From: Rhodobacteraceae bacterium UBA3087
GTDB lineage: Bacteria > Pseudomonadota > Alphaproteobacteria > Rhodobacterales > Rhodobacteraceae
NCBI GenBank assembly: GCA_002367285.1
Contig: DFBF01000072.1
Coordinates: 1-35,301, forward strand
Length of the DNA stretch: 35,301 nt
Direction of reading: 5' to 3'
Part shown: positions 2,847 to 34,126 of the stretch, in pieces
How the letters are laid out: each line of letters starts with the position of its first letter
How positions within the stretch are numbered: the stretch's first letter is position 1
Notes under the pieces: model-generated
What the model saw: only the letters and a program-made list of their open reading frames with translations
What the model was told of the DNA's origin: nothing
Database searches by the model: none
Made by a program: the position numbers and the translations under genes

Positions 2847-2945
2847 ACCCGCAACGCAAACCGGGAACCGGTCCGGATAGCATTGAAGATCTATGAATAC
2901 GTTGCAGTCACAACAAACAACAAGATTAGGATTAAGGAGCACTAG

Positions 2946-3455: not shown

Positions 3456-3464
3456 GAGAGCCCA

Positions 3465-4961: not shown

Positions 4962-5032
4962 CCGGACAACACCCGCTAGGGATTACGACCTACATTACCA
5001 CCCACCAAACTTTATCATGAGAGGAAAATATT

Positions 5033-5533: not shown

Positions 5534-5548
5534 GCCTGCCTTCTTCTT

Positions 5549-5586
5549 CTCCGGGCGTCGTTGCACGCCCGGAGTCCGTTTTTCCC
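5549..5586 (+). terminator. Stem-loop after hcp (attenuating terminator or mRNA-stabilising hairpin)
   Basis: Perfect 10-bp stem CTCCGGGCGT/ACGCCCGGAG with a 6-nt loop (5549-5574), followed by tccgtttttccc. Confidence 0.55.
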
Positions 5587-5613
5587 TGATCTCAAGTGAT
5601 CGGAGCCATCAGC

Positions 5614-6453: not shown

Positions 6454-6943
6454 CAAAACCCTTTCCGAGCGATTGCAGCCGTCCCTTCTGGACCGGCTGA
6501 CCGATAACGAGCCCGGCTCCCAAAAGGAATCCCGCGACACGCGGGTGATCGACATCGTGCGCTTGCGCGAGATCATTCAGCGCGATCTGTCTTGGCTGCT
6601 GAACACCAGTAATATCGAAAACACCTTTGACACCGAGGCCCTGCCGCATGTGGCGCGATCCGTGTTGAACTATGGCCTTAGCGAAGTGTCGGGCGCTTAT
6701 TCCACGACCGAACGCGCCGAACGGATTCGCCGGTCGATTGAACGGGCGATATCCATCCACGAACCCCGCATCATCGAAGGGTCAGTGGATGTTTCCCTGA
6801 CGTCCGAGGATGACAACAGCGACATGACGGTGTCGCTGAATATCCGCGCCGATATGTGGGCCCAGCCGCTGCCGCTGGAATTGTATTTGCGCAGCCAGGT
6901 CGATGTCACCACTGGCGAAGTTTCCGTGGAAAGGAGCCTGTAG
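6446..6943 (+). CDS. tssE: T6SS baseplate TssE (gp25-like)
   Basis: PSLLDRL, RDLSWLLNT, SVLNYGL and HEPR motifs. Confidence 0.95.
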   Translation: MADKTLSERLQPSLLDRLTDNEPGSQKESRDTRVIDIVRLREIIQRDLSWLLNTSNIENTFDTEALPHVARSVLNYGLSEVSGAYSTTERAERIRRSIERAISIHEPRIIEGSVDVSLTSEDDNSDMTVSLNIRADMWAQPLPLELYLRSQVDVTTGEVSVERSL

Positions 6944-6946
6944 CTC

Positions 6947-8824
6947 ATGGATACCCGGCTCATGAAACACTACGAAAGCGAGCTGATGTATCTGCGGGAT
7001 ATGGGGGCCGAATTTGCGGCGGCCTATCCCAAGATCGCCGCGCGGCTGGGCATGGAAGGGGTCGAGGTTCTCGATCCTTATGTTGAACGCCTGTTAGAAG
7101 GCGTGGCGTTCCTGTCCGCCCGCGTTCAGCTGGAGCTGGAGCTGCAATACCCGGCCTTTACCAGCAACCTGCTGGAAATCGTCTATCCGCATTATCTGGC
7201 GCCAACCCCGTCGATGATGATCGCCGCGTTTGAACCGGACACGACCAATGCCGCCATCAAAGACGGCTATGTTTTGCCGCGCCACAGCGTGTTGCGCAGC
7301 CGTCTGATGGAAGGCGAGCAGACCCCGTGCGAATTCCGCACCGCTGCGAAAACGACGATCTGGCCAGTGGAAATCGCCGAGGCGGAATATATCGATGGCC
7401 GGGGCGAACTAGTGGCTGCTGGCGTCGCCGGATCAATCGAGGCCCGTGCCGGTATCCGCCTGCGCTTGCGCCGCAGCGACGGTGAGGCGATTGCCGATCT
7501 GGCAATGGACAATCTGATGCTGCATCTGAACGGCAGCGCGGGCAATAACTGGTTGTTGCTGGAACTTCTGTGTACGCAGACACGAGGGCTCGTCGGGCGC
7601 TCGACCGACCGGCGCGCCGACTGGACGCAACAGCTGCCCGATGGCGCGGTCGAGCAGCGCGGGTTTGAACAAGACGAGGCCCTGCTGCCCACTCCAAAGC
7701 AGTCTTTTGACGGCTACCGGCTGTTGCAGGAATATTTTGCGATGCCTGAACGGTTCCTGTTTGTGGAATTGCAGGGCCTGCAACCGGCGCTGAAAAAAGC
7801 CACCGGGTCGGATGTTGATATCTATATCCTGCTGAAGGAGGGCCGCCGCGAAGTGGCGCCGATGATCGCCCCTGATGCCTTTACCATGAACGCGGTGCCC
7901 GCCGTTAACCTGTTCCCAAAACGCTGCGACCGGGTGCAGGTATCGGCGCGCGACACCGAACAGCATGTGGTTGCCAACCGCACTGCGGGTATGGATTTTG
8001 AAATTTACGCGTTGCAAAGCGTGGTTGGCATCAGTGGCGAAGGCGCCGATGACATAACATTCCGCCCCTTTTATTCCGCCACAGATTTCACTGCCTCCGG
8101 CGAAACCCACCCGGCCTATTACACGATGCGCCGCCGGATGCGGCAACGGTCGGAAAAAGAGCGGTTGCGCGGGGTGCGTACATCTTATCTGGGGTCAGAG
8201 GTGTACCTGACTTTGGTGGACCGGGCGCAGGCGCCTTATGCTGCCGGAATGGAACAGCTGGCGGTGCGGGCGTTATGTACCAACCGGGATCTGCCGATGC
8301 TGCTGGCCTCTGGCGACGCCAATGTTTTTCAACTTCCCGAAGGCGGACCGATCAAGGCGGTTCGCTTACCGGTGTCGCCCACCCGGCCGCATCCAACTTT
8401 GGCGCAGGGCGATACCGCCTGGCGGCTGATCAGCCATCTTAGCCTGAATTACCTGTCGATTGCCAAATCCGGTCAGGCTGACGGGGCTGAAGCGCTGCGC
8501 GAACTGATTGGGCTTTATGCGCCATTGGGCGACCGGGTCACCGAAAAGCAGCTAGAGGGCATTGTGGCCGTCACCAGCCGTCCGATTGTCCGCCGGATGA
8601 GCGACGAAGTCCTATCAACCGCGCTGCGTGGTCTGGAAATCAAGATCAGCTTTGACGAAAGTTTTTTTGAGGGCACCAGCGTCTATGTTCTGGGCGCCGT
8701 GCTAGAGCGTTTTTTCCGACGCTATGCCACAATCAACAGTTTTACAGAAACCGTATTAACAACGCAAAAACGTGGGGAAATTGCCAGATGGCGACCGGAA
8801 AAAGGTCTGGGCCGGATGATCTGA
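6947..8824 (+). CDS. tssF: T6SS baseplate TssF
   Basis: YESELMYLR, DPYVERLLEGVAFL, GYRLLQEYFAMPERF, WRLISHLSLNYLS and INSF motifs. Confidence 0.97.
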   Translation: MDTRLMKHYESELMYLRDMGAEFAAAYPKIAARLGMEGVEVLDPYVERLLEGVAFLSARVQLELELQYPAFTSNLLEIVYPHYLAPTPSMMIAAFEPDTTNAAIKDGYVLPRHSVLRSRLMEGEQTPCEFRTAAKTTIWPVEIAEAEYIDGRGELVAAGVAGSIEARAGIRLRLRRSDGEAIADLAMDNLMLHLNGSAGNNWLLLELLCTQTRGLVGRSTDRRADWTQQLPDGAVEQRGFEQDEALLPTPKQSFDGYRLLQEYFAMPERFLFVELQGLQPALKKATGSDVDIYILLKEGRREVAPMIAPDAFTMNAVPAVNLFPKRCDRVQVSARDTEQHVVANRTAGMDFEIYALQSVVGISGEGADDITFRPFYSATDFTASGETHPAYYTMRRRMRQRSEKERLRGVRTSYLGSEVYLTLVDRAQAPYAAGMEQLAVRALCTNRDLPMLLASGDANVFQLPEGGPIKAVRLPVSPTRPHPTLAQGDTAWRLISHLSLNYLSIAKSGQADGAEALRELIGLYAPLGDRVTEKQLEGIVAVTSRPIVRRMSDEVLSTALRGLEIKISFDESFFEGTSVYVLGAVLERFFRRYATINSFTETVLTTQKRGEIARWRPEKGLGRMI

Positions 8825-9831
8825 GCCATTTTGAGCGACTTGTTCAAGAGCCTGAAAAGCACCATGTTTTTCAAGCGTTGCGGGTGCTCGAAGCGGCTTT
8901 TGCCGATGCTCCGCGTTTGGGGGAAAGCCGTCGGCCACGGCAGGATCATGTCCGTCTGGGCCAAGAGGCCGAGCTGGCCTTTCCGCCGTCATCAATTGCC
9001 GAATTTCGCCCTGGCACCAGCGGCCAACCCGCCCGGCTGACCAACCGCTTTTTCGGCCTGTTTGGACCGCAGGGGCCGTTGCCGCTGCATATGACTGAAT
9101 ATGCCCGCGACCGGTTGCGCAACCACCGCGACCCAACGCTTGTGGCCTTTGCCAACATGCTGACCCATCGAATGATGAGTCTGCTTTACCGCGCCTGGAC
9201 GGCTGGTCAGCCCGCCCCCAGCTTTGATCGCAACGACGATCCGATGTCGCGCAAGGTGGCCGCCCTTGCCGGCTATCACGCCGATAACCTGATGGGCCGC
9301 GATGCGATGCCGGATCTGGCCAAGCTGCATTTCGCCGGGCATCTGGCGCAGGGGCCGAAAAACGCTGAAGGGCTGGTTTCCATCCTGTCGGCCTTTTTTG
9401 ATGTGCCGGTGCGGGTGCAGCAATTTGTCGGTAGCTGGCTGGATCTGGAACCGGATGACCAGTGGAAACTGGGTGCGGCCGCGGGGTTGGGCCGATCCAC
9501 CAGCATCGGCCAAAAAGTCTGGAGCCGTGCAGCCAAGTTTCGCATCCAGATCGGGCCACTGTCGCTGGACGATTACGAACGGTTGTTGCCAGGTGGCCAG
9601 GCGCTTGACCGGTTGCGGGCGATCGTGCGCAATTATGCGGGGGACGCGCTGGATTGGGACGTCAACCTGGTGCTGGCCGGTGACGAGGTGCCGCGCGCCA
9701 GTCTGGGTGGCAGCACCCGTTTGGGTCACACCAGCTGGATCGCCAGCCGCAAGGACTTGGATGAAACCCCCGCCGATGTCGAGGATCTGTTCCTCTATCC
9801 CGGCGCGGGGGCACAACACGCGCCGCATTGA
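8788..9831 (+). CDS. tssG: T6SS baseplate TssG
   Basis: FFGLFGPQGPLPLHMTE, HRMMSLLYRAW and RLGHTSW motifs; overlaps the end of tssF. Confidence 0.96.
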   Translation: MATGKRSGPDDLSHFERLVQEPEKHHVFQALRVLEAAFADAPRLGESRRPRQDHVRLGQEAELAFPPSSIAEFRPGTSGQPARLTNRFFGLFGPQGPLPLHMTEYARDRLRNHRDPTLVAFANMLTHRMMSLLYRAWTAGQPAPSFDRNDDPMSRKVAALAGYHADNLMGRDAMPDLAKLHFAGHLAQGPKNAEGLVSILSAFFDVPVRVQQFVGSWLDLEPDDQWKLGAAAGLGRSTSIGQKVWSRAAKFRIQIGPLSLDDYERLLPGGQALDRLRAIVRNYAGDALDWDVNLVLAGDEVPRASLGGSTRLGHTSWIASRKDLDETPADVEDLFLYPGAGAQHAPH

Positions 9832-9865
9832 CGGCTTGAACAAAAAGAACAGGGAAGGATCAGGG

Positions 9866-12637
9866 ATGACCGAGATTAGCCGCGTAGCGCTGTTTGGCAA
9901 GCTGAACAAGCTGGGGTATCAGGCCGTTGAAAGTGCAACGGTGTTCTGCAAGATGCGGGGGAATCCCTATGTCGAGGTGGTGCATTGGATGCACCAGATC
10001 CTGAACGGGCAGGACAGTGATATCCACCGGATCATCCAGCATTACGATCTGGACCCGGGCAAAATCGCCAGCGAGATGACCCGCGCGCTGGATATGCTGC
10101 CACGCGGGGCCAGCACGATTTCCGACCTGTCTGATCATCTGATGGATGCGATGGAACGCGGCTGGGTCTGGGGTTCGTTGCTGTATTCCGCAAATCAGGT
10201 GCGCACCGGTTATCTGTTGCTGGGGATGCTGAAAACCCCGGCCTTGCGAAACATCCTGTCCGGTATTTCGACGGAACTGGCCGGCATCGGCCCAGACGAC
10301 CTGGCCGACAATTTCAACGCGGCCACCGATGGTTCCCCCGAAGAACGGCTGGTGCCGCAGGATGGCACGCAAACGGGCGGCGGGGCTGTCCCGGGCGAAG
10401 CCTCGGATGCGATGTCCGCCCAGATGGGCGAACAAGAGGCGCTGTCTCAGTTCTGCACGGACATGACCGAACAAGCGCGCAACGGTGAAATCGACCCTAT
10501 TGTTGGTCGGGACGAGGAAATTCGCCAGATTGTCGACGTTCTGATGCGCCGTCGCCAGAACAACCCGATCCTGACGGGCGAGGCTGGCGTGGGCAAAACG
10601 GCGGTGGTCGAAGGGTTCGCGCTGCGCATCGCGCGCGGGGATGTGCCGCCTGCCTTGCAAGGCGCTCGGCTTTTGATGCTGGACGTGGGTCTGTTGCAGG
10701 CTGGGGCCAGTATGAAGGGTGAGTTCGAGAACCGTTTGAAGCAGGTCATCGAAGAGGTGCAGGCCAGTTCGACGCCAATCGTGATGTTTATAGACGAAAC
10801 ACATACACTGGTCGGGGCGGGGGGGGCTGCCGGAACCGGCGACGCCGCCAACCTGCTGAAACCTGCCCTGGCGCGGGGTACTTTGCGAACAATTGGCGCA
10901 ACAACATGGGCCGAATACAAAAAGCATATCGAAAAAGATCCTGCCCTGACCCGCAGATTTCAGGTGGTTCAGGTTGATGAGCCTGATGAGCAAAAGGCCA
11001 TCAAGATGATGCGCGGAATTGCGGGTATGCTTGAACGTCACCACGATGTTCAAATTCTGGACGAGGCAATTGAGGCTTCGGTAAAACTCTCGGCGCGCTA
11101 TATTCCTGCACGACAGCTTCCGGATAAATCGGTTAGTTTGTTGGACACAGCGGCAGCTCGTGTTTCGATTTCTCAGCATGCCGTTCCAGCCGAAGTCGAT
11201 GATTCTCAGCGGCGCATTCAGTCGCTGGAAACCGAACTTGAAATACTTGGACGCGAAGATGACTCTGGTTACGATGTCGTCGAACGCAAGCGGTATGTCG
11301 AAGAACTGCTGTTTCAGGAAAAAGGACGGTGCGCCAAGCTGGAAGAACGATGGGAAATGGAAAAATCCATTGTTTCGTCGATCAAAGATTGGTGGTCAAA
11401 GGTTACGGGTGCGGAACTGCCTGTGACCGATGCCTCTGACGCAGGTGATCAAGATGTGGCGACAGATAAGGATGCCGCCGCAAAAAGCGAAAACCAAGAA
11501 TCCGTATCTGCCGACGACGCCAAAGCAAGCGATCAGGACAGGTCGCAATTCTTGACCGAGCTGCGAAAGAAACGCGCGGAACTTACAGAGTTCCAGGGTG
11601 AATCTCCGATGGTACAGCCTATTGTTGATGCTCAGGTCGTAGCATCCGTTGTCGGCGACTGGACCGGCATCCCGGTTGGCCGCATGGTCAAGGACGAGAT
11701 CGAAACCATCCTGAACCTCGAAGAACACCTTGCCAAGCGGGTGATCGGCCAGGATCACGCGATGCAGATGATCGTCAAGCGCATTCAGACATCCCGCGCC
11801 GGGCTGGACAACCCGTCCAAACCCATCGGGGTCTTCCTGCTGGCAGGCACCAGCGGCGTGGGTAAAACCGAAACCGCGCTGGCGCTGGCCGAGGTGATGT
11901 ACGGCGGCGAACAGAACGTCATCACCATCAACATGTCCGAATACCAAGAGGCGCATACCGTCAGTTCCCTGAAAGGCGCCCCCCCCGGCTATGTCGGCTA
12001 CGGCGAAGGCGGGGTGCTGACCGAGGCGGTTCGGCGCAAGCCTTATTCAGTGGTGCTGCTGGACGAGGTCGAAAAGGCCCACCCGGACGTGCACGAGATC
12101 TTTTTCCAGGTGTTCGACAAGGGCGTGATGGAAGACGGCGAAGGCCGCACCATTGATTTCAAGAACACCCTGATCCTGCTGACGTCGAACGCCGGGTCGG
12201 AATTGATCATGGATCTGTGTTCAGATCCTGATCTGCTGCCAGAACCCGAAGGCATCGCCAAGGCGCTGCGCGATCCGTTGCTGAAAATCTTTCCGGCGGC
12301 GTTGCTGGGGCGCTTGGTATCGATCCCCTATTATCCGTTGTCGCCCGATATGATCGCCAAGATCACCGTTCTGCAACTGAACCGCATCAAGAAACGCGTG
12401 ACCGAGGCACACGGTGTGCCGTTCGAATACTCTGACGCGGTGGTCGACAAGATTGTCGAACGTTGCCAGGAACTGGAAAGCGGTGGCCGGATGATCGACG
12501 CGATTGTCACCAATACCATGCTGCCCGATATCTCGGCGGAATTCCTGCGCCGGATGATGGAAAGTAAAGACATCAACCGCGTGGCTATCGATGTCCAGGA
12601 TGATGGGTTCACCTATTCGTTTGATGCAGTTGAGTGA
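9866..12637 (+). CDS. clpV: T6SS AAA+ ATPase ClpV (TssH), 923 aa
   Basis: Start MTEISRVALFGKLN at 9866 (the upstream ORF extension overlaps tssG). Two Walker A motifs (GEAGVGKT, GTSGVGKT), Walker B motifs FIDE and LLDE, and PPGYVGYG. Confidence 0.97.
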   Translation: MTEISRVALFGKLNKLGYQAVESATVFCKMRGNPYVEVVHWMHQILNGQDSDIHRIIQHYDLDPGKIASEMTRALDMLPRGASTISDLSDHLMDAMERGWVWGSLLYSANQVRTGYLLLGMLKTPALRNILSGISTELAGIGPDDLADNFNAATDGSPEERLVPQDGTQTGGGAVPGEASDAMSAQMGEQEALSQFCTDMTEQARNGEIDPIVGRDEEIRQIVDVLMRRRQNNPILTGEAGVGKTAVVEGFALRIARGDVPPALQGARLLMLDVGLLQAGASMKGEFENRLKQVIEEVQASSTPIVMFIDETHTLVGAGGAAGTGDAANLLKPALARGTLRTIGATTWAEYKKHIEKDPALTRRFQVVQVDEPDEQKAIKMMRGIAGMLERHHDVQILDEAIEASVKLSARYIPARQLPDKSVSLLDTAAARVSISQHAVPAEVDDSQRRIQSLETELEILGREDDSGYDVVERKRYVEELLFQEKGRCAKLEERWEMEKSIVSSIKDWWSKVTGAELPVTDASDAGDQDVATDKDAAAKSENQESVSADDAKASDQDRSQFLTELRKKRAELTEFQGESPMVQPIVDAQVVASVVGDWTGIPVGRMVKDEIETILNLEEHLAKRVIGQDHAMQMIVKRIQTSRAGLDNPSKPIGVFLLAGTSGVGKTETALALAEVMYGGEQNVITINMSEYQEAHTVSSLKGAPPGYVGYGEGGVLTEAVRRKPYSVVLLDEVEKAHPDVHEIFFQVFDKGVMEDGEGRTIDFKNTLILLTSNAGSELIMDLCSDPDLLPEPEGIAKALRDPLLKIFPAALLGRLVSIPYYPLSPDMIAKITVLQLNRIKKRVTEAHGVPFEYSDAVVDKIVERCQELESGGRMIDAIVTNTMLPDISAEFLRRMMESKDINRVAIDVQDDGFTYSFDAVE

Positions 12638-12646
12638 GGCACCGAT

Positions 12647-13870
12647 ATGGCAACCGTAAACATTCCCATTTGTACAAATGATATGAAGCGGCCGCTAAAG
12701 GCTGCCACCAACCTGAAACATACAGTTCTGCCCAAGACCCTGAAATTCGAAGTCTATCTGCAGGTCGACAAGGAACTGCAGGAACAGATCGAAAATGACG
12801 CGGTTCTGGCTGAAAAGTTATTCAAGAAGGTCAGCGTAGAATACAAAAAAACCGTGACCGATCTTGCGGCAGTGGCCACGGATATCGACCGCGAATTTGG
12901 TAAGGAACTGAAACCCAAAGGCTGGGTTGAAAAAGAATGGCAGAAACGCGCGCCAGAGGTTTTTGAAGATGCCGAGGCGCGGATGCTGACCGAGTCCCGC
13001 AAACTGATCAAGAAATGGCAACAGGTCCGCAAAGATCGTAAAAGCTATGTCATCAAGTCGGCGGTCAAGGTGACAATCGGGTCTTTGTCGGTGGCGACGG
13101 CCTCTTTGGGAACTGCAATTGCCATTGGTGGGGTCGCCACCACTGGCGGCGCGGCGGTTCCGGGGCTGGTCGCGGCGATTTACGCCAACGTCAAAGCGGT
13201 GATTGCGCTGGACAAGGTGCTGCGACGGCTAAAGCGGGACGTGGATGAGGCGGAACAGGAACTGTGGAAGCAGTTGCGCTATCTTCTGGACGCCTATGCC
13301 GACAACACAAAAGGCCAGGTTGCTACCAAGGAACTGGCCAAAGCCGCAGTAGAGCAGTTTTTTTCCGTGTCGATGAAAAGCATCTCGAACGGCGAAAACG
13401 CGATGTTCGATTTCAAAGGCAAGCTCGACAAGGTTGAAATCAACCTGTCGAAAATGGGGATCAAGCTGAACAAGGCATTGACGGATCAGGCGGCCCTGGA
13501 CAAGCAGATCGAAGACAAGATCGGCAAGATGCTGAAACAGGCCAATTACAAATCCAAGAAACTGCCCAAGCTGGTGGCCTCTAGTAAAAAGCTGAACACC
13601 GCCGTCAACGATCTGTTGACCGATATCCCGTTGGCAATCCGCAAGGTTGATGGCGCCCGTGTTCGGCATCGCACGATGTACAAGCCCGCGATGGTGAACC
13701 TGAAAGCCAAGAAACCCGAATGGGTGCAATATGGCGAGGCTGCGCTGAAACTGGGTGATTTGGCGCTGGGCGCTGGGTTCACAGATTTCAGCGCGCTGGA
13801 TAGCATTCTGGTTCTGGTTGATTCAATCGGGGTAGAGTTTGACGACGTCCTGGCAGAAAAGCTTTTGTGA
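12647..13870 (+). CDS. Hypothetical Lys-rich helical protein with a central hydrophobic hairpin (candidate membrane-active effector)
   Basis: 407-aa ORF 9 nt after the clpV stop, GAGG RBS, no signal peptide. Near-uncharged Gly/Ala/Val segment at about aa 140-188. Confidence 0.8.
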   Translation: MATVNIPICTNDMKRPLKAATNLKHTVLPKTLKFEVYLQVDKELQEQIENDAVLAEKLFKKVSVEYKKTVTDLAAVATDIDREFGKELKPKGWVEKEWQKRAPEVFEDAEARMLTESRKLIKKWQQVRKDRKSYVIKSAVKVTIGSLSVATASLGTAIAIGGVATTGGAAVPGLVAAIYANVKAVIALDKVLRRLKRDVDEAEQELWKQLRYLLDAYADNTKGQVATKELAKAAVEQFFSVSMKSISNGENAMFDFKGKLDKVEINLSKMGIKLNKALTDQAALDKQIEDKIGKMLKQANYKSKKLPKLVASSKKLNTAVNDLLTDIPLAIRKVDGARVRHRTMYKPAMVNLKAKKPEWVQYGEAALKLGDLALGAGFTDFSALDSILVLVDSIGVEFDDVLAEKLL

Positions 13871-13941: not shown

Positions 13942-14796
13942 ATGGATGAGATGACGGAAAACACCTCACAGACGTCACGCGACAAAGCTCGGGCGTTTGT
14001 CGAACGCAAGGCGGTGACAAATTCGATCCTGGGTGTGATCATCTTCAACGCGATCACGTTGGGCATGTCGACATCCCACGTTATCATGGCAGAAATCGGC
14101 GGCCTTTTGAACGTGATCGACAAGGTGGTTCTGACGATCTTCGTGGCCGAACTGCTGGTGAAATTCTATGCCTATCGCTGGAGTTTCTTCAAAAACGCCT
14201 GGAACATTTTCGACCTGTTGGTCGTCAGCATCGGCCTGTTGCCGGACAGGGGTGGGTTGTCGGCCTTGCGGGGTCTGCGGGTGATCCGGGCGATGCGGCT
14301 GCTATCCGTTGTGCCGCAGATGCGCGCCGTTGTGCAGGCGTTGCTGGACGCGCTGCCGGGGATGGGCGCGGTCATCATCATGTTGTCGATCGTTTATTAC
14401 GTCTTTGCCGTCATGGCGACGCTGATGTATGGGCCGACCTTTGATGTCTGGTTTGGCACGCTTGGTCGATCACTGTATTCTCTGTTCCAGATCATGACGT
14501 TGGAAAGCTGGTCAATGGGCATTGTGCGCCCGGTGATGGTTGAACACCCGACGGCCTGGGCGTTCTTTGTTCCCTTCATCATCATCACCGCGTTTTCTGT
14601 TCTGAACCTGTTCATCGGTCTGCTGGTCAACACCATGCAATCCGCAGTGGAGGACGAGGCCGAGGCGGAATTTGAAAAGCTGCGCGATCTGGTAAAATCT
14701 GAAACCGATCTGGTGGACGAACACGTTCTTGCGATGCACCAAGAGATCAAGGCGCTGCGGGCAGAGGTGGTTGCGATGAAAGGTAACGGCACATGA
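13942..14796 (+). CDS. Bacterial voltage-gated sodium channel (BacNav, NaChBac/NavAb family)
   Basis: Six hydrophobic segments; S3 WNIFD; S4 LRGLRVIRAMRLL (14269-14298); S4-S5 linker PQMRAVV; filter TLESWSM (14497-14517); S6 NLFIG; C-terminal coiled coil. Confidence 0.95.
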   Translation: MDEMTENTSQTSRDKARAFVERKAVTNSILGVIIFNAITLGMSTSHVIMAEIGGLLNVIDKVVLTIFVAELLVKFYAYRWSFFKNAWNIFDLLVVSIGLLPDRGGLSALRGLRVIRAMRLLSVVPQMRAVVQALLDALPGMGAVIIMLSIVYYVFAVMATLMYGPTFDVWFGTLGRSLYSLFQIMTLESWSMGIVRPVMVEHPTAWAFFVPFIIITAFSVLNLFIGLLVNTMQSAVEDEAEAEFEKLRDLVKSETDLVDEHVLAMHQEIKALRAEVVAMKGNGT

Positions 14797-17700
14797 CGGA
14801 CAGCTCACAGAAATTCATTGCCCGCAACCGCGCCCCACGGGTCCAGATCGAATATGATGTGGAACTTTACGGGTCCGAGAAGAAAGTGCAGCTGCCCTTT
14901 GTCATGGGGGTGATGTCTGATCTGTCGGGCAGGTCAAAGGTTCAACAGCCAAGTATCGCAGATCGCAGTTTTCTGGAAATTGACGTCGATAATTTCGATG
15001 ACCGGATGCGCGCGATGCAACCGCGCGCGGCATTTTCGGTGCCCAATACCCTGACGGGCGAAGGCAATATCGCCATCGATCTGACCTTCGAAAAGATGGA
15101 TGACTTTTCCCCGGCGGCAATTGCGGCCAAGGTCGAACCGCTGCGCCCCTTGCTAGAGGCGCGCAGTCAGCTATCTGATCTGATGGCCTATATGGATGGC
15201 AAAGCCGGTGCCGAGGCGCTGATCGAAAAGATCCTGTCGGACCCGGCTTTGTTATCGGCGGTGTCCAGTGCCGCATCCGCAGACGGTGACCAAACCGCCG
15301 CGCTGGACAGTCTGCGCGCGCTGACACCAGAGGATCCGCCGGACACCGATAGTACAGGCGGCATTCTGGATGCTCTGAAGGGCAACGCACCCGAAGATGC
15401 GCCCATTCCGGATCGTAGTGCTGACGTTCTGTCCAACCTGGCCGCCCTGCCGGTTACGCAAAACCTGACACCAGATACATCCGACGCTGTCTTTGACGGC
15501 TTGCGGCAAGCTGCGCCCGAAGACACGCCGCAAGACAATTCCCAGAGCGACGCCCTCGCCGCGCTGCGCACCCAGACTCCGGTAGATCAGCAGGGGCCCG
15601 ACACCGCAACAGAAGACGCGCTTGCAGCTCTGGCGGCTCAAACCCCGCAGGCCGTTGAAGAGGTTGATACAACTTCTGCTGCTTTCGGCAGCCTGGCCGC
15701 AGTGGAAACGCCCGAGATCATGGACGAGTCTCCTGATGCTCTGCTTACTGACCTTGCCAGTTCCGCGCCCATCGCCGCGCCGGAACCAGATAATACAACC
15801 GCTGCGCTGGACAGCCTGGCCGACCTTGAAGTGTCGGCAGCTGTCGAAGACACGACGGACGACCTTTTGGCGGAGCTGGCCGAAACCGCGCCCACGGTTG
15901 CGCCGGAACCGGATAACACCGTTTCCGCATTGGATAGCCTTTCTGGCCTCGAAATACCCGAGGTTGCGCAGGACACGACAGACGATTTGCTAGCCGAACT
16001 CGCCGGATCTGTGTCCAAAGAACCGTCGGAACCAGACACTATATCGGCTGCATTGGACAGTTTGGCCGGACTAGACGTGCCTGAGCGCGCGGAAGAAACA
16101 ATAGATGATCTGTTGGCTGATCTCGCGGATGCCGCCCCCGAAGCGATCGCTGAGTCGGAGGATGCAGCGTTAGTGGCTTTTGACAGTCTTGCTGACCTGG
16201 AAACCCCCGAGGATGGGGGCGCGGATACGCTGGACGACCTGCTGGCCGAAGACACTGGTATCGACGACTTTGATGATCTGTTGGGCGATCTTGGGCCGGA
16301 CGATACAGATGTTGCAGCAGTTGCGGAAACAGAGCCTGAAGCAACCGATCTTGACGATCTATTGGCCGAAGACTCAGGTACCGGCGACCTTGACGATCTG
16401 TTGGGCGATCTTGGGATGGACGACGCAACATCTGACACTGCGGCGGAAACGGTGGAAACTGCGGCAGAGGCGGACGAATTGGACGATCTGCTGGGCGATC
16501 TGGAGGATGATGCAGGCGACGATCTGGACGACCTTCTTGGGGACCTTGACGATCTCGGTGACGGTGAATCGGAGCAGGCAAGTACCACCTCGGATCCGGT
16601 GGGGGCGTCCTTATCGAAAGAGCCGGAATTTGCCTATGGTCAGCTCAGCGCTGACCGGCCCAGCGCCGAGCGGTTGAACCGAAAACGGTTCCGGTTGGCG
16701 GTCTTGGGCGACTTTTCCGGTCGGGCGGCGCGGGGGCAGTTGGAAACCGGTGATGCGCTGGCGGCCCGCAAGCCGATCCTGCTGGATCCCGATACGGTCG
16801 AGGACGTGATCGAAGGGTTCGCCACCGATCTGGTGTTGCCCATCGGCAAGGACGGATCCGGGATTGCGGTTAAACTGGGCGGGTTGGATGATCTGCACCC
16901 GGACGAGCTTTATAAAAATGTTGAGATTTTTACTGAACTGGTGGCCCTGCGCAGGCAACTGAACAGTGGGGCCACGGCGGAAAACGCCGCCCGTCAGTTG
17001 CGGCAATGGGGTGAAAAATACGACACACATGTTGCGCCGACGCGCAGCCGGTCATCTGGCAACTCGGTGCCCGCTGACCTTAAACTCAGCGATTTCCAGA
17101 AGCTGATCGGCGACACATCAGCCACGTTGACTCTGGCGTCGCCCCTGGACGAGTTGATGGCGCAAATCGTCGGCCCGCATATCCGGACACTCCCCGATGC
17201 CGACATCGTGGCGATGCGCGGCGCGGTGGATCAGGCGCTGTCAGCCGCAATGCGACTGGTACTGCACCACCCGGAATTCCAGTCAGTCGAGGCGCAGTGG
17301 CGATCGCTCGACCTGATCGCGCGCAGTATCGAAGATGACGATACGCTGGACGTCATGCTGTATGACATTTCCGCCGAAGAGATTGCCGCCGATCTGGCAA
17401 CAGCGGATGATCTGTCGCAAACCGGCTTTGTGCGATTGCTGACCGAAGGCCCGCTGGACGAGAAAAACGGCCGCGGCGGCTATTCGGCGCTGATCGGGTT
17501 GTATACATTCGAAGAAACGCCGCCGCATGCGGAATTGCTGGGCCGGATCGCCCGGGTTGCGGCGCATGTGGACGCGCCGTTTATCGCCGCGATCACCCCG
17601 ACATTCCTGGACACTGACAAACAGAACCGTCACCCGTTGGTGGCCAATGCCTGGGACATCCTGCGCGACATGCCCGAGGCAGGGCATCTGGGCCTGGCGT

Positions 17701-18299
17701 CACCCCGGTTCCTGCTGCGCCAGCCTTATGGCGCAAAATCCGAACCTATTTATGAGTTCGAGTTCGAGGAATTCACCATGTCGGCGGGGCTGCGCGGCAT
17801 GTTATGGGCCAATCCGGTGGTTCTGGTGGCGATCCTGCTGGCGAAATCTTTCCGCCAGAACGGCGCCAGTATGGGTCTTGGGTCAATCATGTCGCTAGGC
17901 GGGATACCGTTCTATTTTGTCAATGACCGCTATGGCGATCAGGTGGCTCTGCCCTGTACCGAACGCAATCTAACACTGGATAAGGTTGAACAGGCCAATG
18001 GCCGCGGGATCATGTCGGTTGTGTCGATCAAGGGGCGCGATGAAATCCGGCTGGCATCATTCAATTCCCTGGCGGGGGCCGAAATTCTGGGCCCGTGGAG
18101 CGGCATAGAAGCGCCACCGCCATCGCCGCCAAAACCCAAACCTGCTGCCGCCGCACCCGAAACAGTGGACTCTGACGACAGTTCAGGCAACGATAGCGAT
18201 CTGGACGACCTGCTGGCGGGTTTCGGCGATGATCTGGATTTAGGCGGTGACGATGATGACACCGACGCTGATCTGGCTGCGCTGCTGGCAGATTTATAA
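14793..18299 (+). CDS. Sheath chimera: TssB + acidic repeat linker + divergent TssB-like domain + TssC N-domain + acidic tail (1168 aa)
   Basis: aa 1-154 are about 80% identical to TssB at 2946 (manual count, 29 differences). Second TssB-like domain RFRLAVLGDFSGR...LDDLHPD. TssC-like VLHHPEFQSVEAQWRSL, PRFLLRQPYG and LPCTE motifs. Confidence 0.9.
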   Translation: MTDSSQKFIARNRAPRVQIEYDVELYGSEKKVQLPFVMGVMSDLSGRSKVQQPSIADRSFLEIDVDNFDDRMRAMQPRAAFSVPNTLTGEGNIAIDLTFEKMDDFSPAAIAAKVEPLRPLLEARSQLSDLMAYMDGKAGAEALIEKILSDPALLSAVSSAASADGDQTAALDSLRALTPEDPPDTDSTGGILDALKGNAPEDAPIPDRSADVLSNLAALPVTQNLTPDTSDAVFDGLRQAAPEDTPQDNSQSDALAALRTQTPVDQQGPDTATEDALAALAAQTPQAVEEVDTTSAAFGSLAAVETPEIMDESPDALLTDLASSAPIAAPEPDNTTAALDSLADLEVSAAVEDTTDDLLAELAETAPTVAPEPDNTVSALDSLSGLEIPEVAQDTTDDLLAELAGSVSKEPSEPDTISAALDSLAGLDVPERAEETIDDLLADLADAAPEAIAESEDAALVAFDSLADLETPEDGGADTLDDLLAEDTGIDDFDDLLGDLGPDDTDVAAVAETEPEATDLDDLLAEDSGTGDLDDLLGDLGMDDATSDTAAETVETAAEADELDDLLGDLEDDAGDDLDDLLGDLDDLGDGESEQASTTSDPVGASLSKEPEFAYGQLSADRPSAERLNRKRFRLAVLGDFSGRAARGQLETGDALAARKPILLDPDTVEDVIEGFATDLVLPIGKDGSGIAVKLGGLDDLHPDELYKNVEIFTELVALRRQLNSGATAENAARQLRQWGEKYDTHVAPTRSRSSGNSVPADLKLSDFQKLIGDTSATLTLASPLDELMAQIVGPHIRTLPDADIVAMRGAVDQALSAAMRLVLHHPEFQSVEAQWRSLDLIARSIEDDDTLDVMLYDISAEEIAADLATADDLSQTGFVRLLTEGPLDEKNGRGGYSALIGLYTFEETPPHAELLGRIARVAAHVDAPFIAAITPTFLDTDKQNRHPLVANAWDILRDMPEAGHLGLASPRFLLRQPYGAKSEPIYEFEFEEFTMSAGLRGMLWANPVVLVAILLAKSFRQNGASMGLGSIMSLGGIPFYFVNDRYGDQVALPCTERNLTLDKVEQANGRGIMSVVSIKGRDEIRLASFNSLAGAEILGPWSGIEAPPPSPPKPKPAAAAPETVDSDDSSGNDSDLDDLLAGFGDDLDLGGDDDDTDADLAALLADL
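15288..16560 (+). repeat. Degenerate coding tandem repeats in the chimera linker
   Basis: About 15 units of 20-21 aa; CGGAACC recurs at 15781, 15904 and 16027 (123-bp period). Followed by DLDDLL units with a 120-bp period (16233, 16353). Confidence 0.9.
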
Positions 18300-18362: not shown

Positions 18363-20498
18363 ATGGCAGAGAGTAAGCCACATGAACACTCACTGGTCTG
18401 GATGTCTGGCGGATATCAGGCCCAGGATATTCTGCTGAAGCGCGCGATTGTTCGCGAAGGGCTTAGCAAACTTACCGAGACCACAGTTGAATTTCAGTCA
18501 AAAAACAAAGCGGTCAAGCTGGAGGGGTTCGTCGGACAGGCCATGAATGTGCACATCATGGCTGAGGGCGGCAAGGAACGAATGTTCACCGGTGTGTGTG
18601 TATCAGCTGAAAACCTTGGGTTTCGCGACGGGTATGGCCATTACGTGGCCGAAGTTCGGCCCTGGTTCTGGATGCTGACCCGCACCCAGGACTGCCGGGT
18701 GTTTCAGGAGATGCACGTCGTAGATATCATCACTCAAGTCTTAAAAGACCGCGGGTTTTCCGAAATTCAGAACCGGTTAAGCGACACCTACGAGGTGCGC
18801 GCCTATTGCGTTCAATACCGCGAGACAGATTATGATTTCGTCTGCCGCCTGATGGAGGAAGAGGGCATCTATTACTATCTGGACAACAAGATGGATGCCA
18901 ACAAAATTGAAAAGCTTGTCCTGTGTGATGGCGTGGGCGGACATTCACCGGTGTCCGGCAATTCGACTTTGGAATATCACGCGCGCGATAATAAAGACCG
19001 CAGACGCGAGGATCACATTGCCGAATGGGCCGCCGAAGAAAGCCTGACGAGGGGCAAGGTAACCCTGAACGATTTTGACTTTATGAATCCAACGGGTGAA
19101 CAGAAAGCCATCAGCACGATCGAAAATGGCGATCACAGATACTTTAAACACGAGGTTTACGACTATTCCGGCCACCATCACGGTGAAAACGCCAGTGTCA
19201 AACAAGCCAGTCCAGCTAAAAAAGTTGTAGCGACCAAGCAGGCGCAAGTCCGGATGGAAGCCGAGGCGATCCGCCACAAACGCTGGCGCGGGGCAGGCAG
19301 TGTGCGCACCCTGGGCACCGGCAATTGGTTCAAGCTGCAGGACCACCCGGATGCTGATGCCAACAAGGAATACCTGGTTACTGACGCCATCCACTATATT
19401 CAGGTCTCATCAGATTTTGCCGATAAGGATCTGCGCCACGATCTTGACGCGCGGAACATGGATTTCCCCGAAGAGATGAAGGGCGATGCCTATGCCTGCA
19501 CCTTTGGCGCGATCCCCAAACTGGACCAGTTTCGCGCCCCACTGACGACGCCATGGCCGGAAATATCCGGGCTGCACACGGCTATTGTTGTGGGCCCCAG
19601 CGGCGAAGAGATTCACACTGACAAATACGGCCGGATCAAGGTTCAGTTCCATTGGGACCGCAAAGGCAAGAAGGACGAAAAATCGTCCTGCTGGGTCCGC
19701 GTGGTCACGCCATGGTCGGGTAAGAACTGGGGCATGGTCGCGGTGCCGCGCATGGGCCAGGAGGTGGTCATTCAGTTTGAAGAGGGCGACCCGGACAGGC
19801 CGATCTGTTCGGGTATGCTTTACAATGAAGACACAATGCCGCCCTACAAGTATCCTGACGATCAGACGCAGGTCGGGATACGGACGGATTCGTCAAAGGA
19901 TGTCAATGACGCCAAGGCGTATAATGAGCTGATGTTTGACGACAAAGCGGACAGTGAAATGATGCGCGTGCAGGCGCAAAAAGACCATCAGATGCTGATC
20001 AAGAACAAATCAGTGGTCACCATCGGTCTGGATGAGGTTGATACCGGTGATCATGATGATGAAGGCAGTTTAAGCCAGGTGGTCCAAAACCATGTTACGG
20101 AGATGATCAAGGATGGTGATCACTACGTCACCATCGAAAAGGGCGACGAAGAGATCAAGATAGAGACCGGCAGCCAGCTGTTGGAGATCAAGAAGGACAA
20201 GACTCAGACGATAGAAGGCAAACACACCAAGACGATCACTGGAAATGACGCCACAACCGTCAAAACCGGCAACATGACGGTCGACGTCAAATCGGGCAAG
20301 ATCACGATGACGGCGGCGATTGAAATCATGCTTAAGGTTGGGGGATCATCGATCAAAATCGACAATTCAGGTGTGACGATCAAAGGCCCGATTATCAAAA
20401 TCCAGGCCGACGGCATGGCAGAAATGAAAAGTCCGGCCACCACAGTCAAAGGCGACGGAATGCTGACCCTCAAGGGTGGCATTACGATGATCAACTAG
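18363..20498 (+). CDS. vgrG: T6SS spike VgrG (TssI), no C-terminal effector extension
   Basis: YCVQYRETDYDFVCRLMEEEGIYY, DKYGRIKVQFHWDR, PRMGQEV and GDPDRP motifs; beta-repeat C-terminus. Confidence 0.97.
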   Translation: MAESKPHEHSLVWMSGGYQAQDILLKRAIVREGLSKLTETTVEFQSKNKAVKLEGFVGQAMNVHIMAEGGKERMFTGVCVSAENLGFRDGYGHYVAEVRPWFWMLTRTQDCRVFQEMHVVDIITQVLKDRGFSEIQNRLSDTYEVRAYCVQYRETDYDFVCRLMEEEGIYYYLDNKMDANKIEKLVLCDGVGGHSPVSGNSTLEYHARDNKDRRREDHIAEWAAEESLTRGKVTLNDFDFMNPTGEQKAISTIENGDHRYFKHEVYDYSGHHHGENASVKQASPAKKVVATKQAQVRMEAEAIRHKRWRGAGSVRTLGTGNWFKLQDHPDADANKEYLVTDAIHYIQVSSDFADKDLRHDLDARNMDFPEEMKGDAYACTFGAIPKLDQFRAPLTTPWPEISGLHTAIVVGPSGEEIHTDKYGRIKVQFHWDRKGKKDEKSSCWVRVVTPWSGKNWGMVAVPRMGQEVVIQFEEGDPDRPICSGMLYNEDTMPPYKYPDDQTQVGIRTDSSKDVNDAKAYNELMFDDKADSEMMRVQAQKDHQMLIKNKSVVTIGLDEVDTGDHDDEGSLSQVVQNHVTEMIKDGDHYVTIEKGDEEIKIETGSQLLEIKKDKTQTIEGKHTKTITGNDATTVKTGNMTVDVKSGKITMTAAIEIMLKVGGSSIKIDNSGVTIKGPIIKIQADGMAEMKSPATTVKGDGMLTLKGGITMIN

Positions 20499-20508
20499 GT
20501 GGTGTGTC

Positions 20509-21102
20509 ATGACTTATAAATTCGATAATCTGGTCAAGTTTCCCACAGATCCTGTGGCTAAACTGCTGTCCCATGCCAACGTTATTCTGAAAACTCCGCT
20601 GCAAGCGCCAGCAAGCGCGGGCGCTGAAATTGTGCTGGCCGAGCTGGCCGAAAAAGGAGCGCTGATTGATCTGCTGCGCCTTCTGGCCATCCTGTTGCCA
20701 CCACGCGAACGTGTCTGGTGGGCCTGCATGGCGGCGCGGGATTATGTTGGCCCGCGATCTGAAGCGGATCCGCTGTCACTGTCAACATCGGAAACCTGGG
20801 TGTTCAACCCGTCCGAAGAAAACCGTAACGCGGCGCGGAACTCTCTGGATCATGCTTATATTGATGATGACACGGTAAACTGTGCATTGGCGGTTCTTTA
20901 TTCTGACGGCACATTGGGGCCTGGTGATCTGGCAGAGTACCCGGCGCCTGCAGGTGCATCCGAGACTGCCGCGTTTGTCATGAATATGGTAGCGTTAGGG
21001 GAACTATCTGATAAGTTTGAAGAGCATGGCCAGATCTTGATCAACCGTGCCTTGAATATCGGGCAGGGCGGCAATGGCAAGACCCAGCTAAGCGAAACAT
21101 AA
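20509..21102 (+). CDS. DUF6931-like VgrG/PAAR-associated protein
   Basis: LLAILLPPRERVWWAC motif and position between vgrG and PAAR; family recalled from memory, not searched. Confidence 0.65.
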   Translation: MTYKFDNLVKFPTDPVAKLLSHANVILKTPLQAPASAGAEIVLAELAEKGALIDLLRLLAILLPPRERVWWACMAARDYVGPRSEADPLSLSTSETWVFNPSEENRNAARNSLDHAYIDDDTVNCALAVLYSDGTLGPGDLAEYPAPAGASETAAFVMNMVALGELSDKFEEHGQILINRALNIGQGGNGKTQLSET

Positions 21103-21120
21103 AACAGGGGAGAAAATCAG

Positions 21121-21420
21121 ATGGGTCAACCACAAGCCCGTGTATCCGACCTGCACTTGTGCAATGTGCCGGCCCCGACTGTGCCGCCGGTGCCGGCCCC
21201 GATGCCAATCATTCCGCCCTGTTGCCCGACAGTGCTGGTGGGCAAATTGCCTGCTGCGCGGGTGACAGATATGCACGCCGCTGCCCCTGCGCCGCATCCG
21301 ATTGTCAAAGGGTCGATGACCGTTCTGATCGGCAAAATGCCTGCGGCGCGGATGGGCGATCTGGGGGCCTGCGGCGGCGCGATCCTAAAGGGTGAATTCA
21401 CCGTGCTGGTCGGTGGCTGA
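21121..21420 (+). CDS. PAAR-repeat spike tip protein
   Basis: PQARVSD, PAARVTD and PAARMGD repeats with His/Cys candidate zinc ligands; 99 aa, no extension. Confidence 0.95.
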   Translation: MGQPQARVSDLHLCNVPAPTVPPVPAPMPIIPPCCPTVLVGKLPAARVTDMHAAAPAPHPIVKGSMTVLIGKMPAARMGDLGACGGAILKGEFTVLVGG

Positions 21421-21428
21421 AGGGTACA

Positions 21429-22898
21429 ATGACAGTCACGCTTAAATTCCAGTCCTCCGGTACGATCCCGGGCGGTGCCCAGCCGACGCAGATGCGCGGG
21501 GGCAGCCTGGCAATCGGGCGTGGCCCGGAAAATGATATGGTTTTGCCGGATCCCGACAGGATGCTGTCCAAGAACCATTGTGTAGTCGAAGACCATAACG
21601 GCAATGTGCTGGTGGTGGATCTGTCGACCAATGGCACCTTTTTGAATTATTCCAAAATCCCGCTGGGCAGGATTCCGACACCGCTGAACAATGGTGATAT
21701 TCTGTGCATCGGCACTTATGAATTGCTGGTCGAAATCGGCGGCGAGTTGCCTGATTTCGACGACAGGATAGCCGCTCCGACGACCCAGGCCCAGGTGTCA
21801 CCTGGCGTGGCCGAAAATGCGCCTGACCCGATGCGCCTGCTGGAGGATGCACAACCGGGCGGGGATTTCCTGGATGATCTGCTGGGCAGTGAAGGCGGGC
21901 CGACCGGACCATCGCAACTGAACCCCGTTGACCCGATTGACGAACTTCTGCCGCCATTGGGTGAAGACGAGGATCCGTTTTTTCAGAAACCTGAAGACGG
22001 GCGCGAAGGCACAGGCGCCAGTCTGGGAATGCACAGCTCGACTGCTCAGGACAGTTTCCACTCGCAGGCACCCTCAACCAGCCAGATCCCCGAAGACTGG
22101 GACGATTTGCTGGGCCCGCCAGTGTCATCACAACCCGTGCCCGAATTCTTGCCAGAGCCTGCGCAAGCACCCCGCGTAAAAACGCCCCCGGTGCTTCCCG
22201 TGGCAGATGGCATAACGGGCGCTACCCAAGTATCTGTCCCCGCATCTGCACCGGAAACTATACCGCAACCACCCGCCCCGGTGGCAGAGGGTCAAATCGC
22301 TGCCCCGACAGGTGACGGTGACGCGGCACGTGCCTTTCTGGCGGCTGTCGGGGCCGAGGATGCTCAGATTGCTGACGCAGATCTGACCGCGACGATGGCC
22401 CGGATGGGGCGGGTGATGAAGACGTTGGTTACCGGGCTGCGCGAAATCCTGATGACCCGCACGTCGATCAAATCTGAATTCCGCATCGAACAGACGATGA
22501 TCGGGGCAGGCAGCAACAACCCCCTGAAATTCTCGATTAGCCCGGAACAGGCGATTGACGCGATGGTGCGGCCAACCACCAAGGGCTATCTCAGCCCGGA
22601 AGCTGCTGCCGAACAGGCGTTGAATGACATCAAGGCGCATGAAATCGCCATGGTCACCGGGATGGAAGCGGCGCTAAAAGGCGTACTGACCAAGCTGAAC
22701 CCCGAAGTTCTGGCCGGTCAGATCGAAACCAGCGGCGCCTTTGGCAGCCTGTTGCGTGGGAAAAAAGCGCGGTATTGGGAAGTTTACGAAAAAATCTATG
22801 CCGAGATCTCGGATCAGGCCGAATATGATTTTCACGACTTGTTCAGCCGTGAATTCGCGCGGGCGTACAAGGAACAGCTGGACAAGCTGAAAGAATAA
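21429..22898 (+). CDS. tagH: T6SS FHA-domain protein TagH (Fha)
   Basis: FHA motifs IGRGPEND, SKNHC and DLSTNGTF; Pro/acidic linker; C-terminal NNPLKF, DIKAHEIAM and F..AY.EQ motifs. Confidence 0.95.
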   Translation: MTVTLKFQSSGTIPGGAQPTQMRGGSLAIGRGPENDMVLPDPDRMLSKNHCVVEDHNGNVLVVDLSTNGTFLNYSKIPLGRIPTPLNNGDILCIGTYELLVEIGGELPDFDDRIAAPTTQAQVSPGVAENAPDPMRLLEDAQPGGDFLDDLLGSEGGPTGPSQLNPVDPIDELLPPLGEDEDPFFQKPEDGREGTGASLGMHSSTAQDSFHSQAPSTSQIPEDWDDLLGPPVSSQPVPEFLPEPAQAPRVKTPPVLPVADGITGATQVSVPASAPETIPQPPAPVAEGQIAAPTGDGDAARAFLAAVGAEDAQIADADLTATMARMGRVMKTLVTGLREILMTRTSIKSEFRIEQTMIGAGSNNPLKFSISPEQAIDAMVRPTTKGYLSPEAAAEQALNDIKAHEIAMVTGMEAALKGVLTKLNPEVLAGQIETSGAFGSLLRGKKARYWEVYEKIYAEISDQAEYDFHDLFSREFARAYKEQLDKLKE

Positions 22899-22932
22899 GA
22901 GGCCGATAAAGGGCCACAAGAAGGAGAAGCAT

Positions 22933-24273: not shown

Positions 24274-24322
24274 GGGCCGGATGAAACAGGGGCCAAAAAC
24301 GGCTTAGGAATTGGGAAACAAG

Positions 24323-33940: not shown

Positions 33941-34126
33941 TGTTCGCCCTTCCCTAAAGTTAAAAATGGAGTTGCAAGCAAAGCCTATACCACGGCTCTG
34001 TGTCTCACAACGATTTTGCGCGCTGCTGTGAACGCTCGGTATTTGATCATTTGCGGCAGCCCGGGCATAAAACGCTTTACGCAGGCCGGGTAAACGGGCT
34101 GAATTGACGATAGAAAAGGGTTTGAT

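Follow-up and report, generated by a model that had tools for sequence, protein, structure and literature searches.

Bacterial voltage-gated sodium channels (BacNavs) with a TLESWS filter pass Na+, and NavSp1, NavRosD and NavSulP are studied BacNavs of Rhodobacteraceae. To our knowledge, the H1 type VI secretion system (H1-T6SS) of Pseudomonas aeruginosa has no BacNav. According to PMC4225499, BacNavs open only at voltages much more positive than those of resting bacteria, and the stimulus that opens the channels is an open question. In the H1-T6SS, PpkA, Fha, PppA and TagF are driven by TagQRST (PMC11881912), and the accessible part of that paper is concerned with outer-membrane damage, with no mention of depolarisation. 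Suria et al. (2022) place group 3 of the roseobacter T6SSs near the P. aeruginosa H1-T6SS; their paper states that no function had been described for roseobacter T6SSs, defines TssC_L as one ORF in which a VipB domain is joined to a pair of VipA domains, and reports TssC_L as absent from the H1-T6SS (PMC9515649).

The window, that is, the whole stretch of 35,301 nucleotides analysed here, comes from Rhodobacteraceae bacterium UBA3087 and contains a T6SS operon that is complete except for tssJ, which is absent. One co-oriented run leads from tssA to clpV, orf407 and the channel gene, and continues on the same strand through a fusion gene of 1168 aa and vgrG to pppA; ppkA is convergent with this run (Table 1). 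The placement of the channel gene inside a T6SS operon, as originally predicted, is therefore confirmed by the full set of surrounding genes. For clpV, the longest ORF begins at 9302 (9302-12637) and the true ClpV start is at 9866, the extra 188 codons overlapping tssG. Between 12400 and 18500 there are 5 promoter-like sites (2.9 +/- 1.6 expected) and 4 terminator-like sites (6.2 +/- 2.1 expected). A recent foreign origin of the channel gene was considered and rejected, its GC3 (0.74) being the same as that of its neighbours. The genome is 75% complete, and the window channel is the only BacNav found there; the one other Ion_trans gene has a potassium filter (TTVGYGD).

Table 1. Features of the window, with positions counted from its first letter.
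Feature	Positions	Strand	Basis
tssA tssB tssC hcp tagJ tssE tssF tssG clpV	1800..12637	+	Pfam, ORF calls
orf407, variable-slot gene; Lys-rich, helical, hydrophobic stretch, putative cargo	12647..13870	+	no Pfam family
BacNav subunit (6TM, homotetrameric voltage-gated Na+ channel), 284 aa	13942..14796	+	ORF, Pfam, structure matches, clade membership
S43 in S1, aligned to NavAb E32	14068..14070	+	structural alignment, clade counts
WNIFD motif, S3, W87-D91	14200..14214	+	sequence, clade alignment
S4 gating arginines R110, R113, R116, R119	14269..14298	+	invariant, 102/102 clade members
TLESWSM selectivity filter, T186-M192	14497..14517	+	kept in 101/102 clade members
A217 in S6, aligned with NavAb residue 206 / NavMs T207	14590..14592	+	structural alignment, clade counts
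Neck and C-terminal coiled coil	14638..14793	+	clade alignment, predicted structure
ATGA, channel stop / tssC_L start overlap	14793..14796	+	sequence; conserved in related loci
tssC_L, 1168-aa TssB-acidic linker-TssB'-TssC' fusion	14793..18299	+	Pfam, fold; name from PMC9515649
vgrG DUF6931 PAAR fha tssK tssL tssM tagF pppA	18363..30712	+	Pfam, ORF calls
ppkA, Ser/Thr kinase with transmembrane helix and periplasmic part	31076..33313	-	Pfam, downstream scan

Several genes flank this run in related clusters. Beyond ppkA lie an OmpA-family gene (33359-33940, minus strand), an M15 peptidase gene and a gene for a caspase-domain/Sel1 protein (window 33359-34966 onward; contig C170, 37826 bases), a set conserved in both channel-positive and channel-negative clusters. 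Of the 40 clusters examined, 20 have a divergently oriented cassette of exbB, two exbD genes and a DUF4384 gene upstream of tssA (L175:3375-6796; also L199-L238). This cassette was rejected as a partner of the channel, its presence being independent of the channel. On a plasmid of Leisingera methylohalidivorans, the T6SS is immediately followed by a cluster of chemotaxis genes (L321:2687-12082).

The channel ORF contains no internal stops, and its 284-aa product is a BacNav by every sequence test applied. It matches Ion_trans (E 9.7e-39), and Ion_trans/PKD_channel are the only Pfam domains on it. The nearest solved structures by sequence are NavMs (5hvx, E 4e-76) and NavAb (E 6e-68), and the top matches in a fold search with the predicted monomer (pLDDT 77.8) are all CavAb, NavAb and NavMs (Foldseek E about 1e-16). 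Like NavAb-like BacNavs generally, the protein is a single-domain 6TM subunit with a voltage sensor and a pore module, and it has the TLESWS filter of this group. The four S4 arginines, WNIFD, TLESWSM and the coiled coil are all present, as expected of the intact channel that had been proposed. The arginines are accompanied by S2/S3 counter-charges, with D60, E70, K74 and D91 invariant in 102/102 members of the T6SS-linked clade described below; the small S4 residues A108, G111 and A117 are specific to that clade. The C terminus carries a hydrophobic 4-3 repeat between residues 251 and 279 (V251/T255/V258/V262/M265/I269/L272/V276/M279), and residues 203-281 form one continuous helix in the predicted monomer model, consistent with the neck and four-helix coiled coil of BacNavs.

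The gene that follows the channel had been described as a sheath gene. It does encode sheath-type domains; it is not tssB or an ordinary sheath gene, however, and the canonical tssB and tssC lie elsewhere in the window, at 2946-4961. It is a single long ORF with a VipB domain and two copies of the VipA domain, and canonical tssB/tssC are nearby, which identifies it as TssC_L. The order is TssB, acidic linker, a divergent TssB' and the N-terminal domain of a TssC'; over 151 aa the first TssB shares 81% identity with the canonical protein, and the gp25-like C-terminal domain present in canonical TssC has no match in the fusion. The TssB'-TssC' part is modelled with a confident fold (pLDDT 89.7) that resembles T6SS sheath subunits in a fold search (5n8n, E 1.4e-16), and it could be a sheath cap or terminator. 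TssC_L is a single ORF in 72 loci, with lengths of 1059-2048 aa. The linker (15290-16620) is very acidic and is made up of short recurring motifs, DDLL and ALDSL among them, and Fha has three D[DE]LL motifs like those of the linker. Since this acidic linker is encoded beside basic slot proteins (described below), it might act in docking or as a chaperone. The TssB'-TssC' unit (window 16623-18122) also occurs as a stand-alone gene of ~600 aa far beyond roseobacters, in metagenome loci at 35-50% identity (L239-L318) and in two other alphaproteobacterial families, so that, judged from these matches, its distribution is wider than that reported for TssC_L.

To investigate where this channel type occurs, relatives were collected from species genomes, and the best 80 of 234 confirmed relatives (70-91% identity) were examined. 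T6SS genes lie beside the channel in 80/80 of these loci, and the next gene has a TssB-like head in 79/80 and is vgrG in the remaining one. The condition named in the original prediction as refuting it, that the closest homologues lie in unrelated contexts, thus does not hold for the best 80 of 234. It should be noted that these loci were chosen by similarity, and for this reason 300 genomes of the family, sampled evenly with a single genome for each genus, were also searched. A TssC match is present in 82/300, at 71% identity or more (the subtype of the window) in 46. Any BacNav is present in 203/300, and a copy of the window type (58% identity or more) in 30/300, other BacNav matches being at 56% identity or less among the matches listed. 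All 30 copies of the window type are inside a T6SS locus, 27 of them placed on DNA sequence and three (G306, G138 and G134) from coordinates only; the arrangement is therefore not unique to one strain. None was found in the 36 genomes whose TssC matches are all of other kinds, nor in the 218 without TssC. Among the 46 clusters of the window's subtype, the channel is present in 30, absent from 15 and unscored at a contig end in one; of the 15 channel-less clusters, 7 retain TssC_L parts and 8 lack both. In its distribution the channel thereby behaves as a Tag-type accessory, with a conserved position, restriction to one subtype and non-essentiality (30/46, against none elsewhere in the 300 genomes).

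Beyond the family, a class sample of 400 genomes (397 of other families) yielded one copy of the window type, at 76% identity (G366). In this complete genome of another family, an intact channel of the T6SS clade and a short remnant of the tssC_L start (L179:9743-10735) are flanked by IS66, IS1595 and other transposases; no T6SS was found within 10 kb of the channel, and no TssC match in the genome. The search for the clade outside the sampled genomes reaches down to about 55% identity. One Granulosicoccus record (L032) that would indicate transfer to Gammaproteobacteria was not counted, as it carries a conflicting Paracoccaceae label. On the Parasedimentitalea marina plasmid pW43D (L176:1317-2141) the T6SS channel is broken and tssC_L and vgrG are broken too, which suggests that the entire locus is decaying or that the sequence contains errors. 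Public records name the channel gene 'ion transporter'.

Phylogenetic analysis places the T6SS-linked channels apart from other BacNavs. A quick IQ-TREE analysis comprised 149 rows, 102 T6SS-linked (the stray G366 included) and 47 others, after 18 duplicates and 4 rows with stops had been left out. All 102 T6SS-linked channels lie on one side of a single branch (SH-aLRT 100) in a tree that was midpoint-rooted and has several long outside branches, and a 29-row clade of housekeeping BacNavs is separate from them. The phylogeny proposed as a check on the original prediction therefore returned the dedicated clade that it called for, distinct from the housekeeping copies. A second tree was reconstructed from the baseplate genes (tssF, tssG, tssE and tagJ; 46 rows, with three carrier genomes left out). 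On this tree the channel must have been gained or lost 5 times, each change being required by starred branches, and the earliest-branching ingroup rows have the channel; one gain followed by at least four losses is therefore the simplest reading, subject to the long outgroup branch of this tree. The codon comparisons indicate that the T6SS-linked channels are under purifying selection, with a median dN/dS of 0.16 (44 disjoint pairs, maximum 0.53). Pooled by part, dN/dS is 0.12 for the pore, 0.28 for the sensor and 0.25 for the C-terminus, making the pore the most constrained. Together with the near-invariant filter (101/102) and the invariant arginines and counter-charges (102/102), this points to channels that have kept the ability to conduct. 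Non-T6SS BacNav copies gave a median of 0.44 from 14 distant pairs in which synonymous sites are probably saturated, and no comparison is drawn with this value.

The clade also differs from the housekeeping channels at gating-related residues. A217 in S6 aligns with the position at which the NavAb chain used carries an engineered Ala206, and NavMs T207 is position 210 of its chain. In the clade (n=102) this residue is Ala in 97, Ser in 3 and Thr in 2, as opposed to Thr in 25 and Ala in 4 of the housekeeping rows (n=29). Ser is found in the four nearest outside rows and Ala in 8/47 non-T6SS rows, and the small S6 residue may be older than recruitment to the T6SS. In NavAb, T206A and T206S abolish early inactivation and make activation about 25 and 18 mV more negative, respectively (PMC6363407). 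In NaChBac, T220A leaves almost no inactivation and moves opening 20 mV in the negative direction (PMC3362524; also PMC6122921), NavPp T232A has been employed likewise (PMC7041947), and non-inactivating NaChBac is also mechanosensitive (PMC10038658). Since 100/102 clade members have Ala or Ser at this site, a long-open channel is predicted, with inactivation slowed or removed. The S6 Thr associated with slow inactivation is replaced by Ala, which marks a variant and not an exclusion from the BacNavs. In S1, position 43 is Ser or Gly in 99/102 clade members, as against Glu or Asp in 29/29 housekeeping rows, so that the S1 acidic residue is absent from the window channel, as it is from NavMs. 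Loss of this residue and the changes in S4 could counteract the shift in gating expected from S6. Position 236, which we take to be equivalent to NavSp1 H242, is Val in 102/102 clade members and His in 27/29 housekeeping copies. A search of 12 of the 19 supplementary files of the PMC7041947 sequence set did not find the clade motif.

Sequence integrity, a dedicated clade, a fixed slot before tssC_L, co-inheritance with the baseplate, repeated loss, purifying selection and the small S6 residue found almost throughout the clade together make it quite probable that the channel is functionally linked to the T6SS. As to how, our preferred reading, offered tentatively and with something short of even confidence, is that of an inner-membrane alarm, a channel that would be opened by depolarisation, would remain open and would thereby trigger the T6SS. 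The channel would be shut at the bacterial resting potential. In seawater, a breach of the envelope or a contact-induced depolarisation would open it, and Na+ flowing in would both strengthen the depolarisation and prolong it. Sustained depolarisation would then feed the PpkA-Fha-PppA-TagF checkpoint, all four components of which the cluster retains, or sheath dynamics, and firing would follow. The channel would in this way fill the place held by TagQRST in the related Pseudomonas H1-T6SS. TagQRST-type genes were found neither in the window, nor in the annotated Leisingera cluster, nor among the 39 of 83 downstream ORFs scanned at 8 loci. A downstream check of three channel-less clusters found TagQRST absent there too, and the empty TagQRST place is therefore independent of the channel. 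Objections to an alarm are the dispensability of the channel (15/46 clusters are without it), the losses on the baseplate tree, the wider distribution of TssC_L, the possibly greater age of the small S6 residue, the changes in S1 and S4, the silence of PMC11881912 on depolarisation and the stray copy in G366. In its boldest form, which we regard as doubtful, the proposal would be that roseobacter T6SSs are electrically triggered, with a dedicated, naturally non-inactivating channel that responds to depolarisation, or to tension on contact, by setting off a regenerative Na+ spike, and this spike in turn discharging the weapon.

Much of the same evidence (T6SS context, clade and selection) would also be expected if the channel supported a Na+ cycle, letting Na+ re-enter for pH or ion-motive-force homeostasis in surface-attached cells with the T6SS switched on, with no triggering involved. 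This is the only established role of BacNavs, known for NavBP/NsvBa of alkaliphilic Bacillus (PMC4225499), and a long-open channel suits bulk Na+ entry; the tolerated losses and the intact copy of G366 outside a T6SS agree with it as well. However, 17/30 carriers have a second BacNav match elsewhere in the genome that could serve this purpose, the near-total confinement of the lineage to the operon is left unexplained, and the neighbouring ExbB/ExbD cassette is unlinked to the channel (14/25 channel-positive and 6/15 channel-negative clusters). We consider this explanation unlikely, while still deserving of attention.

The junction with tssC_L raises another possibility, namely that the clade-specific cytoplasmic coiled coil holds TssC_L (or Fha or ClpV) at the inner membrane or shifts it allosterically, and that the signal is movement of the voltage sensor and not Na+ flux. 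The overlap of the channel stop with the next start, correctly noted in the original prediction, recurs in 88 of the 101 related loci with a called start, 29 of them as ATGA. In the other 13 the downstream start is within 8 bases in 8 and across a larger gap in 5, some of which probably reflect mis-picked starts. Overlaps occur at 5/19 other junctions of the window operon; a stop/start overlap is thus ordinary there in itself, and its conservation across loci is more than chance. The C-terminal domain is longer in the clade (median protein length 284 versus 268 aa) and conserved within it (mean identity 0.61 versus 0.31), and only one of the 30 carrier family genomes, G219, has the channel without a TssC_L part. 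These observations would suit a scaffold. On the other hand, TssC_L is often free of the channel, in 7 family genomes and 25 metagenome loci, the most constrained part of the protein is the pore, and in G274 the channel has moved away from tssC_L to another slot of the same operon, after tssC. Co-loss of the two genes amounts to 5 independent pairs only (sign test p 0.25). Taken together, this makes a scaffold distinctly improbable. The metagenome figure comes from a reverse scan of 80 loci with TssB'-TssC', in which the channel is present in 12, absent from 25 and outside the reach of 43 that are too short; since 25 of the 37 informative loci have no channel, TssC_L is older and wider than its pairing with the channel, and all 12 channel-bearing loci are among the closer matches. 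One of the 80 loci (L301, contig Ga0214479_100018) has a different BacNav (6761-7654, minus strand; filter TLEDWTD; 30% identity to the window channel) head-to-head with a short TssC_L gene (7992-9791, plus strand), near a PAAR gene and a gene for a Lys-rich protein weakly like a slot family (23%, E 2e-6); this is either a second independent BacNav-TssC_L pairing or chance.

The losses inferred from the baseplate tree and the frequency of overlaps in the operon would also be compatible with a passenger, that is, an ancestral insertion whose benefit is unrelated to secretion and which moves with the T6SS on plasmids or islands. Many clusters are indeed plasmid-borne, with 21 plasmid records of channel copies at 71-79% identity, one of which was inspected and is a full T6SS cluster. 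Distances between channels are correlated with those between baseplates (Mantel rho 0.81, n 28), a value that linkage alone would yield. Against this, the channel has been retained over baseplate divergences of about 36%, has been relocated within the operon in G274, and is found outside a T6SS only once among the 102 members of the clade, next to a slot whose genes are exchanged all the time. A passenger accordingly seems to us improbable also.

This slot, between clpV and the channel, holds 0-3 genes; their products fall into clusters of 52, 22, 11 and 5 and represent at least four families with no relation to each other. Its proteins are helical, of 300-530 aa and rich in lysine (median 15.7% Lys, net charge +20; 90 proteins), often with a hydrophobic stretch; no convincing Pfam matches were obtained among the 25 scanned, and an atlas search with orf407 gave a best score of 0.85, which is a lead only. 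By composition and position, the slot families are candidates for uncharacterised T6SS cargo. The original prediction had listed an immunity factor among possible roles, and the order slot gene-channel does resemble effector-immunity, with basic, possibly pore-forming proteins against which the channel would protect and no other immunity gene evident beside the slot families in related loci. The channel is, however, an unlikely cognate immunity protein because the slot varies, is often empty (gap <250 bases in 24/95 channel loci, some of them duplicates) and also occurs free of the channel (6 loci). A single conserved channel follows all of the slot families in place of a strict pairing with one of them, and an opened Na+ channel in seawater would be expected to deepen a depolarisation and not to repair it. 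Protection of this kind is therefore a poor fit and very unlikely. Least credible of all is the suggestion that the channel is itself secreted cargo, inserted into the membrane of a target cell and depolarising it there, since despite having clpV and vgrG on either side and putative cargo genes close by, and despite the precedent of the ion-pore T6SS effector Tse4 (PMC12169545), it has no VgrG, PAAR, MIX, Rhs or Hcp-linked domain, keeps a plain 6TM tetrameric architecture from end to end, has TssC_L and not an immunity partner as its next gene, and is far more conserved than the slot proteins.

The inner-membrane alarm thus remains our preferred, if tentative, reading, and of the roles suggested in the original prediction a damage sensor would fit best. 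The clade joins two questions, namely what BacNavs do and what opens them in bacteria, and how a T6SS without TagQRST is triggered. Its carriers belong to the culturable, non-pathogenic marine genera Leisingera, Ruegeria, Tritonibacter and Sulfitobacter, in which the cluster is often plasmid-borne; natural channel-less clusters offer ready controls, and for channel biophysics the clade supplies some 100 naturally occurring variants of the S6 site that controls inactivation. An electrical trigger, if true, would be the bacterial counterpart of an excitable stinging cell, and signalling would for the first time be a role of a BacNav.

Among the top papers listed by full-text searches of the open literature, none links BacNavs with the T6SS. 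The terms 'channel' and 'sodium' are absent from the main text and one supplement of PMC9515649, in which non-T6SS genes are drawn in grey, and from the searched text of PMC4337385 and PMC5014874, which describe these clusters. Term searches of a 2026 review of T6SS accessory factors (PMC13584744) returned no sodium, voltage, TssCL or roseobacter. BacNavs and the T6SS are both known; their combination, and a clade with a natural S6 Ala, appear to be undescribed.

Compared with known systems, the window channel is most like NavMs (5HVX; about 50% identity) and NavAb (3RVY, 5VB2; 40-45%, from structural alignments), with which it shares 6TM topology, four S4 arginines, WxxFD, TLESWSM and a C-terminal coiled coil. 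It differs from both in the natural Ala at the T206/T207 site, the small S4 residues, its own neck/coiled-coil signature and its place in a T6SS operon; at the position of NavAb E32 it has Ser, and NavMs has Leu. The housekeeping BacNavs of Rhodobacteraceae share the host family, the filter and the arginines, and 17/30 carriers have both kinds. They form a separate clade at 47-54% identity, with Thr217 in 25/29, Glu43 in 27/29, His236 in 27/29 and a shorter C-terminus, and no T6SS genes were found in any of their flanks examined. The cluster itself is the same as the group-3 T6SS1 of Suria et al. (2022), which likewise has no tssJ and has impE/tagJ, FHA, PAAR and TssC_L (PMC9515649). The P. 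aeruginosa H1-T6SS belongs to a related sheath group and has PpkA, Fha, PppA, TagF and TagJ in common with it; the H1 system has TagQRST, none of which was seen here, and its signal is outer-membrane damage (PMC11881912). NavBP/NsvBa of alkaliphilic Bacillus are BacNavs too, and Na+ entry through them matters to the physiology of the cell, but they belong to another BacNav group and context and serve motility and pH homeostasis, not secretion (PMC4225499).
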